The translations under genes were made by a program, and so were the position numbers. 64,000 nt of DNA from Candidatus Omnitrophota bacterium (GTDB taxonomy: Bacteria; Ratteibacteria; UBA8468; B48-G9; DTJG01). Below, piece after piece: positions 17,406-18,234 of the stretch. The notes under the pieces were generated by a model that worked only from the letters and a program-made list of their open reading frames with translations, did not search any database and was not told where the DNA came from. Every line of letters begins with the position of its first letter. Positions within the stretch are counted from its first letter, which is position 1. The stretch spans positions 16,348-80,347 of the forward strand of contig JAMWBU010000001.1 in assembly GCA_023819255.1 (NCBI GenBank). The letters are read 5' to 3'.

Positions 17406-17795
17406 TTATAGTCCGCTGTAGCTTATTGTCGCTCCAGCAGCGTTTGTATAAGTCATTGTCACAGTAACGCCTGCCGCGGCTCCTGTGCCGGATGTTGTTG
17501 CTGTGAATCCATTGGCGTCAGCCGAACTCACAGTGTAATCCGTAAAATATTTATTTCCTAGTGTGTCCACGCCCAGGTTGGTTTTTGTTGTGGTGTATGT
17601 GTTGTTTTCAGCATAGTAAATTCTCTGAGCGGTTAAGACAGAACCAAGCAGAGCCGCTCCCTCAGAAGCCATTGCCTTCTTGATATTTGCCCTGTATATT
17701 GGCACTGCGACTGAGGCAAGGATACCCACTATGATTACCACTACCATTAGTTCAACAAGGGTAAATCCCTTTTCTATAAATTTTCTTTTTTTCAT
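17406..17795 (-). CDS. pilA: Type IVa major pilin (PilA paralog 1)
   Basis: Leader MKKRKFIEKG, then the cleavage site [26 protein letters not shown] Thr/Ser/Gly-rich C-terminus. 129 aa. Confidence 0.85.
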   Translation of the reverse strand: MKKRKFIEKGFTLVELMVVVIIVGILASVAVPIYRANIKKAMASEGAALLGSVLTAQRIYYAENNTYTTTKTNLGVDTLGNKYFTDYTVSSADANGFTATTSGTGAAAGVTVTMTYTNAAGATISYSGL

Positions 17796-17841
17796 CGTTT
17801 CCCTCCTTGATTTCTCCTGTAGAGGAACTCGAATTCGTTTA

Positions 17842-18234
17842 TTACAACCCGCTGTAGCTTATTGTTGCTCCAGCAGCGTTTGTATAAGTCATTGTCACAG
17901 TAACGCCTGCCGCGGTTCCTGTGCCGGATGTTGTTGCTGTGAATCCATTGGCGTCAGCCGAACTCACAGTGTAATCCGTAAAATATTTATTTCCTGTTGT
18001 TTCAACATTAAGGTTGGTCTTTGTTGTGGTATAAGTGTTGTTCTCGGCATAATAGACCTTTTGCGCTGTAAGCACTGCGCCCAGCAAAGCAGCTCCCTCT
18101 GATGCTGCCGCTTTTTTTATATTGCTTCTGTAAATTGGAATGGCGACAGCAGCCAGAATACCAACGATAATAACAACTACCATCAATTCAATCAATGTAA
18201 ATCCTTTCTGCGACTTCATTGTTTTCCTATTCAT
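17842..18234 (-). CDS. pilA: Type IVa major pilin (PilA paralog 2), tandem duplicate
   Basis: Leader [36 protein letters not shown]-terminal 100 aa are almost identical to paralog 1. Strong RBS aaaaggaggtg. Confidence 0.85.

Follow-up and report, generated by a model that had tools for sequence, protein, structure and literature searches.

Two type IV pilin genes stand in tandem on the minus strand of a 64,000-nucleotide (nt) stretch of DNA from an uncultivated Candidatus Omnitrophota bacterium (contig JAMWBU010000001.1; the whole stretch is called the window below). They are very probably the descendants of an old tandem duplication whose 3′ halves, encoding the pilin head, undergo recurrent interlocus gene conversion, while the 5′ halves and the leaders stay separate. 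This would be segmental concerted evolution, in which one domain is kept identical by recombination and the other has long been separate, repeated across lineages whose PilM proteins are only ~60% identical.

Mosaic identity of the two pilin genes

The upstream gene (17842..18234, minus strand) and the downstream gene (17406..17795, minus strand), referred to here as 'up' and 'dn', are open reading frames (ORFs) for prepilins of 130 and 129 amino acids, respectively, with a shared architecture of leader, cleavage/methylation motif, α1 helix and four-stranded β head. Codons are numbered from the glycine of the GFTL cleavage motif, and standard mature numbering is one less. When the two genes are aligned it is apparent that they are mosaic, as a first-pass annotation of the sequence had proposed. 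Over codons 1-70 (210 nt), which encode the α1 helix and the αβ-loop, they are 70% identical in nucleotides, 84% in amino acids and 36% at third positions, and the synonymous divergence (dS) is saturated and not computable; over codons 71-120 (the last 150 nt) the corresponding values are 96.7%, 98% and 94%, with a dS of 0.11. The diverged segment occupies 17996..18204 in 'up' and its counterpart 17560..17768 in 'dn', and the converted tract occupies 17845..17995 in 'up' and, in register with it, 17409..17559 in 'dn' (all minus strand). The tract runs from a GNKYF motif to the C-terminus and covers the whole predicted β head.

Within these 151 nt there are 5 mismatches, at 17916/17480, at 17866/17430 and, for the rest, in the last two codons ('dn' positions 17412, 17411 and 17409); the core of the tract (17849..17995 against 17413..17559) carries 2 mismatches in 147 nt (98.6%). 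The longest perfect run is 79 nt in the tract and 11 nt in the 5′ segment, and past the 3′ limit, which falls in the last one to three codons, the flanks of the two genes are unrelated. The divergence profile along the alignment is not uniform: the maximum chi-square test places the breakpoint after nt 209 of 360, and none of 2000 permutations reached the observed statistic (p < 5e-4), whether all sites or third positions alone were used. In the AlphaFold2 model described below, this breakpoint coincides with the start of the predicted β-sheet head.

These measurements also refine the earlier description. Its figure of about 98% for the 3′ identity agrees with that of the tract core, although at one end the ranges it gave (17417..17560 and 17853..17998) are shifted by 2 nt from the true register, and its drop in 5′ identity is real but deeper than the "roughly 75%" that it cited, the measured value being 70-71%. 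The inverted conservation that it inferred holds for nucleotides and not for protein, since the N-terminal helix largely keeps its amino acids (87% identity in the first 30 codons) and the 5′ drop is almost all synonymous. Where both genes have codons for the same amino acid, the codons differ at 37 of 59 sites 5′ of the breakpoint and at 3 of 49 sites 3′ of it (Fisher p = 4e-10). The identity of the tract thus reaches synonymous sites, for which selection at the protein level cannot account. The two pilins are 85-89% identical; their leader peptides (18205..18234 in 'up' and 17769..17795 in 'dn', minus strand) are unlike each other, as the annotation had stated and the ORF translations bear out, that of 'dn' being MKKRKFIEK.

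Heads and helices of the pilin pair in six lineages

Contigs were fetched for individual pilin homologues; all of the sequences, like the window, are metagenome assemblies. The tandem pair is present in the same synteny in five more lineages, namely L163, L164/L165/L166 (three assemblies of one species), L170/L171, L172 and L173. PilM identity among the six lineages, the window included, is 59-67% except for L170 and L172 (86%), and the lineages are therefore well-separated taxa. L174 and L175, in which PilM is ~40% identical, have a single pilin gene each. Motif scans of genome and metagenome contigs (GFTL[VI]ELM, KAxASEGAA) returned, among the matches listed, only distant pilins of at most 58% identity.

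In the 3′ segment the two paralogues of one genome resemble each other more than they resemble their orthologues. Within-genome identity is 97% in the window, 96% in L164, and 89% in each of L163, L170 and L173, and orthologues in different genomes are on average 74% identical (range 67-83%). The corresponding dS is 0.11 in the window, 0.27 in L163, 0.11 in L164, 0.40 in L170 and 0.57 in L173, and ~1.5-2.0 between genomes. In neighbor-joining trees (codon bootstrap, 500 replicates) of this segment, the two copies of a genome form sister pairs with bootstrap support of 100% in the window, 98% in L163, 79% in L170 and 100% in L173; the L164 pair alone reaches 48% because a copy from the related L167 joins it, and the group of the L164 pair with L167 has 100%. 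The 'dn' copies never form a clade in the 3′ segment.

The 5′ segment gives the opposite picture. With amino acids or with codon positions 1+2, the two copies of one genome come together in 0-1% of replicates and all 'dn' copies form one clade (74-86% bootstrap), and four residues distinguish the paralogues in six of six genomes: I/V at codon 5, A/S(T) at codon 19, K/R at codon 49 and V/I at codon 50, where the window 'dn' has V, S, R and I. Between genomes this segment has a nonsynonymous divergence (dN) of 0.06-0.08 and a dS of ~1.7-1.9, and both paralogues are under strong purifying selection. The four paralogue-fixed residues and the 'dn' clade indicate that the duplication predates the split of the lineages, and 3′ halves that match within genomes and differ between them, with dS values from 0.11 to 0.57, argue for several independent homogenizations at different dates. 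Gene conversion of the 3′ segments, as put forward in the first-pass annotation, is therefore upheld by the synonymous identity and by the other lineages, but conversion recurs across the clade and did not happen just once and recently.

These six lineages may not mark the full age and extent of the duplication and its pattern. Two more distant 124-aa pilins, P0088 and P0090 (for each of which the longest contig listed is 64228 nt), differ from each other by A/S at codon 19 and V/I at codon 50 and have nearly identical heads.

The window's mosaic alone could equally have been produced by one exchange, either a recent whole-gene duplication followed by the swap of one 5′ half for a diverged allele acquired from another strain or one old partial duplication, and inter-strain recombination does occur at this locus, as the shift in identity from 99.8% to 97.7% between L168 and L172 described below illustrates. 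A single event of this kind is nonetheless improbable when the relatives are considered: the two 5′ types and their four fixed residues recur in six lineages whose PilM proteins are ~60% identical, and genome-specific 3′ halves whose last events differ so widely in dS need more than one homogenization.

Identity at synonymous sites would also be expected if the tract had a function at the nucleotide or RNA level, for instance by forming a structured RNA, being the target of a small RNA or serving as an uptake sequence. We find this barely credible, as the tract is 67-83% identical between genomes with saturated synonymous sites, gives no Rfam match at E up to 1, and is not raised in GC content at third positions (GC3). 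In none of the lineages does GC3 in the tract exceed that of the 5′ part, and GC-biased gene conversion was rejected on the same grounds. At ~77% identity, the nearest 3′ relatives are too far removed to reveal the donor of the window's latest conversion.

In four lineages the homogenized tract has its 5′ edge at codons 67-73; in L173 the edge is more ragged, with mismatches up to codon 80. This edge corresponds to the invariant GNKYF motif and to the start of the first strand of the head in the model.

Several observations weigh against recurrent conversion confined to the heads. The support for the 'dn' clade in the 5′ segment is moderate, and it falls to 0-33% once the saturated third positions are included. 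L172 shows no 3′ homogenization (75% nucleotide identity), and its two copies (L172:3593-4390) are identical over 39 nt of the helix-coding part (mature nt 16-54), which may be a small conversion tract in the otherwise protected half; the restriction of conversion to the 3′ half is therefore a tendency and not a rule. The remaining points concern assembly. A repeat of ~150 nt is near read length, so that base calls in the tract could mix between copies, and assemblies break at it: L176 ends within the tract and L167 ~100 nt past its first pilin.

The L172 heads also bear on the suggestion in the first-pass annotation that selection keeps the heads identical. Such selection may add to conversion and is inseparable here from neutral conversion, but with heads that are 75% identical in nucleotides in L172, identity is not obligatory.

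These assembly breaks are what would be seen if a short-read assembler had merged or swapped reads of the two copies or of strain variants. L176 (JAMWBT010000008.1), a third assembly of the same species and 99.97% identical, ends at window position 17907, 9 nt past the only internal A/G difference, and carries the 'dn' base at window 17916; L167 stops after its first pilin; and the partial public pilins P0020, P0099 and P0105 derive from contig ends at the pilin locus. An artefact of this sort is nevertheless very unlikely to explain the pattern as a whole, which appears in six lineages and in assemblies that were made by different pipelines and stem from different archives (JGI, NCBI, ENA; contig names of the k141 and NODE types). 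The L164, L165 and L166 assemblies of one species agree, the copies keep 2-5 private differences in the tract and have unique flanks, and L001, a contig from ENA, agrees with the window in 12392 of 12393 positions, both genes included. In practice, metagenome-assembled genomes (MAGs) of the Omnitrophota type tend to fragment or collapse at the pilin locus, and trees built from whole pilin genes will mislead.

The same question arises for L168 (4001-4492) and L169 (415-906), which are related to L172, come from two samples, and each hold a single hybrid pilin gene. Compared with L172, the hybrid has 'up' sequence as far as a 34-nt run common to both copies and then 'dn' sequence with its flank, and it amounts to a clean 408-nt deletion whose crossover lies within this identical run of the 3′ tract. 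Flank identity to L172 is 99.8% upstream and 97.7% downstream, a shift which suggests that an inter-strain recombination boundary lies at the pilin genes. Coverage of both contigs is low (3-9x by the contig names). Because the 34-nt repeat is shorter than an assembler's usual final k-mer and the same junction occurs in two samples, the hybrid more likely arose by a real deletion through unequal crossing-over than by assembly collapse.

A proposed mechanism and comparison with known systems

We suggest that the two direct-orientation copies, 436 nt apart, exchange sequence by non-reciprocal homologous recombination, in which the sister copy would overwrite the last ~150 nt of its neighbor; recombination between direct repeats may be sister-chromatid or intrachromosomal. 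The 3′ halves would stay competent for recombination since every conversion renews long stretches of identity (79 nt in the window), whereas the 5′ halves, with a longest identical run of 11 nt, would be too diverged for strand exchange to begin or extend. The first 210 nt and the leader would in this way escape conversion and persist as two ancient lineages under purifying selection. Selection for paralogue-specific helix or leader residues probably began the 5′ divergence: had selection not at one time acted against conversion in the 5′ parts, these could not have diverged once the whole gene was duplicated. This suggests that leader or helix differs in function between the paralogues, even though the fixed replacements are conservative. 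The direct repeat would also allow unequal crossing-over with the loss of one copy.

Concerted evolution is a known process, and the case described here is mechanistically ordinary and reveals no new mechanism; what is distinct is that it stays within a single structural domain of a type IV pilin. The Campylobacter flagellin genes flaA and flaB, for which concerted evolution has been described (Meinersmann and Hiett 2000, Wassenaar 1995, and Harrington 1997, as cited in PMC5126078), are likewise tandem co-oriented genes for filament subunits that are homogenized by intragenomic recombination, with both copies kept group-wide. The fla genes, however, are ~95% identical over their full length and have separate sigma-28 and sigma-54 promoters, whereas in the window pair only the 3′ 40% is homogenized, the 5′ 60% is synonymously saturated, and there is apparently one promoter. 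For prokaryotic duplicates, long-lasting recurrent concerted evolution has been catalogued in 26 genes (PMC6053082) and reported for tandem mtrA copies (PMC4632066), and the pilin pair resembles these in its ancient duplication and in having, in many lineages, within-species paralogues that are closer than between-species orthologues. It differs from the catalogued duplicates in being segmental, with a boundary that is also a structural domain boundary, and in that its depth is gauged only by the ~60% identity of PilM. A text count found the word "pilin" absent from PMC6053082; no literature description of segmental concerted evolution was found for pilins or for Omnitrophota, and PMC10066038 treats type IVa pili of the phylum without such a pattern.

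Pilin genes are the classic substrate of programmed conversion, and the tract encodes the exposed head, as in pilE. In the Neisseria pilE/pilS system, several promoterless, 5′-truncated silent cassettes and a G-quadruplex next to pilE serve an expressed gene that is diversified. The window pair would share with it the non-reciprocal transfer of head-coding DNA between copies in one genome, and a Neisseria-like system of variation with a donor cassette, or a Moraxella-type inversion or phase switch, might be imagined. We regard either as extremely unlikely. Each copy is a complete gene that has its leader, cleavage motif and Shine-Dalgarno sequence, and the nearly identical heads of the two, homogenized where pilE is diversified, leave no reservoir of variants. 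Searches of the 64-kb window with both genes (blastn, tblastn) found no further copies or fragments, and thus none of the pilS-like silent cassettes that the first-pass annotation had raised; no quadruplex motif of four G3+ runs lies within 23 kb, the only one in the window being at 41331; and the two copies are direct, with no flanking inverted repeats found.

The best precedent for co-assembly of the two pilins is Streptococcus sanguinis, in which PilE1 and PilE2, a pair of major pilins, form one heteropolymeric type IV pilus and co-assemble in pull-downs (PMC6497953, PMC10628169). There too, the two full-length major-pilin genes are adjacent (78% identity there and 85-89% here), but S. sanguinis is monoderm and has a different variant of the pilin fold. 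By analogy, both pilins may be made and enter the same filament, giving a uniform exposed surface over two slightly different helical cores, a proposal that we consider tentative. A further step, which we think unlikely, is that the homogenization is adaptive: the filament would be an obligate two-subunit polymer in which I/V4, A/S18, K/R48 and V/I49 (standard mature numbering) tune assembly or packing, and the Thr/Ser-rich head would have to match between subunits. If this were so, both heads would, for instance, stay substrates of the GT-C-like membrane protein encoded beside the pilins (see below) or would present one host-binding surface, and gene conversion would be a route by which a new head variant enters both subunits at once. 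In Omnitrophota, host attachment is believed to depend on type IV pili (PMC10066038).

Pilin proteins and the surrounding gene cluster

Both genes are, as read from their sequences, type IVa major-pilin-like paralogues with the features of class III signal peptides, and their products are predicted to be cleaved and polymerized. The cleavage motifs are KG|FTLIELM and KG|FTLVELM, each following a leader that is short and basic and opening a hydrophobic stretch, with Glu at mature position 5. Pfam N_methyl is matched with 39.2 bits by 'up' and 29.2 bits by 'dn' (cut-off 21.2) and TIGR02532 with 35.9 and 31.8 bits (cut-off 16.3); Pfam ComP_DUS is matched above its cut-off by both pilins ('up' 33.9 bits). 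The PDB matches of a profile of the pilin family are major pilins, from Myxococcus xanthus (PilA), Neisseria (PilE) and Geobacter.

The AlphaFold2 model of 'up', built from 102 homologues, has a mean predicted local distance difference test score (pLDDT) of 88.6, with a helix at 14-65 and strands at 88-94, 97-103, 112-118 and 122-128. The predicted structure, a long N-terminal helix packed on an antiparallel β-sheet, is the type IV pilin fold. The closest solved folds found with Foldseek are Thermus thermophilus PilA4 (6xxd) and Neisseria PilE (1ay2, 5vxx), with a probability of 1.00 and template modeling (TM) scores of 0.53-0.61. The model shares with these the lollipop shape of a long α1 helix and a four-stranded sheet, together with a type IVa-like N-terminus, but sequence identity to them is only 26-27%. 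A further difference is that the mature 'up' pilin contains no cysteine by composition count and none is visible in the 'dn' translation, so that the disulfide-bonded C-terminal region typical of diderm type IVa pilins is missing, a region that is not required for membership of the superfamily. Threonine and serine make up 34% of the pilin head.

Across the lineages the pilins are more conserved than PilM, with orthologues 86-90% identical in amino acids against 59-67% for PilM, the reverse of what is usual for major pilins. Their C-terminus is nearly invariant, ending in (A/G)GATISYSGL.

A sigma-70-like promoter match, TTGACT-17-TAAAAT (10/12, a consensus match only), lies 5′ of 'up' at 18284..18312 (minus strand), and Shine-Dalgarno sequences precede 'up' (GGAGG, 18242..18246, minus strand) and 'dn' (GGAGGG, 17801..17806, minus strand), the latter within the 46-nt spacer between the genes (17796..17841, minus strand). 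A scan of the minus strand found no terminator-like site between the pilins or between 'dn' and pilM, which makes co-transcription likely, and both pilins are probably read from one promoter. The start of 'up' is ambiguous in public annotation, where P0020 begins at Met6 of the 130-aa ORF. In L165 (L165:3582-3971), the gene table lists a 92-aa product (3693-3971) for the upstream pilin, of which the full 129-aa ORF with its leader is intact.

The pair belongs to a complete type IV pilus assembly cluster in which the PilB, PilC, PilM, PilN, PilO and PilQ families, identified with Pfam, all lie within 11 kb, in the order pilB-pilC / TPR protein / pilin-pilin-pilMNO-SPOR-pilQ. The upstream part consists of pilB (T2SSE ATPase, 21383..23065, minus strand) and pilC (T2SSF, 20153..21379, minus strand). 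Downstream, pilM (PilM_2, 16370..17377, minus strand) starts 28 nt past 'dn' and is followed on the minus strand by pilN, pilO and a SPOR-domain protein (Pfam PilN, PilO, SPOR) and then by pilQ (Secretin, 12460..14163, minus strand).

Between pilC and the pilins, a divergent gene (18348..20156, plus strand) encodes a membrane protein of ~600 aa with C-terminal tetratricopeptide (TPR) repeats, recognized by their TPR matches. This protein is found at the same position in every relative with the pilin pair and also in L175, but L174 lacks it. In three orthologues (L170:1676-3475, L165:1657-3474 and L172:1687-3486) the N-terminal half matches Pfam PMT_2, a GT-C mannosyltransferase-like family (29.2 bits in L170, cut-off 26.1). 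The N-terminal 410 residues of the window protein have no Pfam match, PMT_2 included, and no PDB sequence match, and a GT-C assignment of the window's own protein was dropped because only its orthologues match PMT_2. Given the Thr- and Ser-rich head, the TPR membrane protein could be a putative pilin O-glycosyltransferase. The locus singles out two candidates, a two-pilin filament with a uniform head and a conserved candidate glycosyltransferase beside the pilins.

Proteins nearly identical to those of the window carry the source names of Candidatus Omnitrophica/Ratteibacteria MAGs. Beyond pilQ, two pilin-like ORFs (Pfam N_methyl, minus strand) extend to ~11649. They are small (114 and 181 aa) with weak prepilin N-terminal motifs, and together with a 432-aa DUF7305 protein they occupy 10351..12463 (minus strand), 3′ of pilQ, where they probably form a minor-pilin or tip set of the same pilus.

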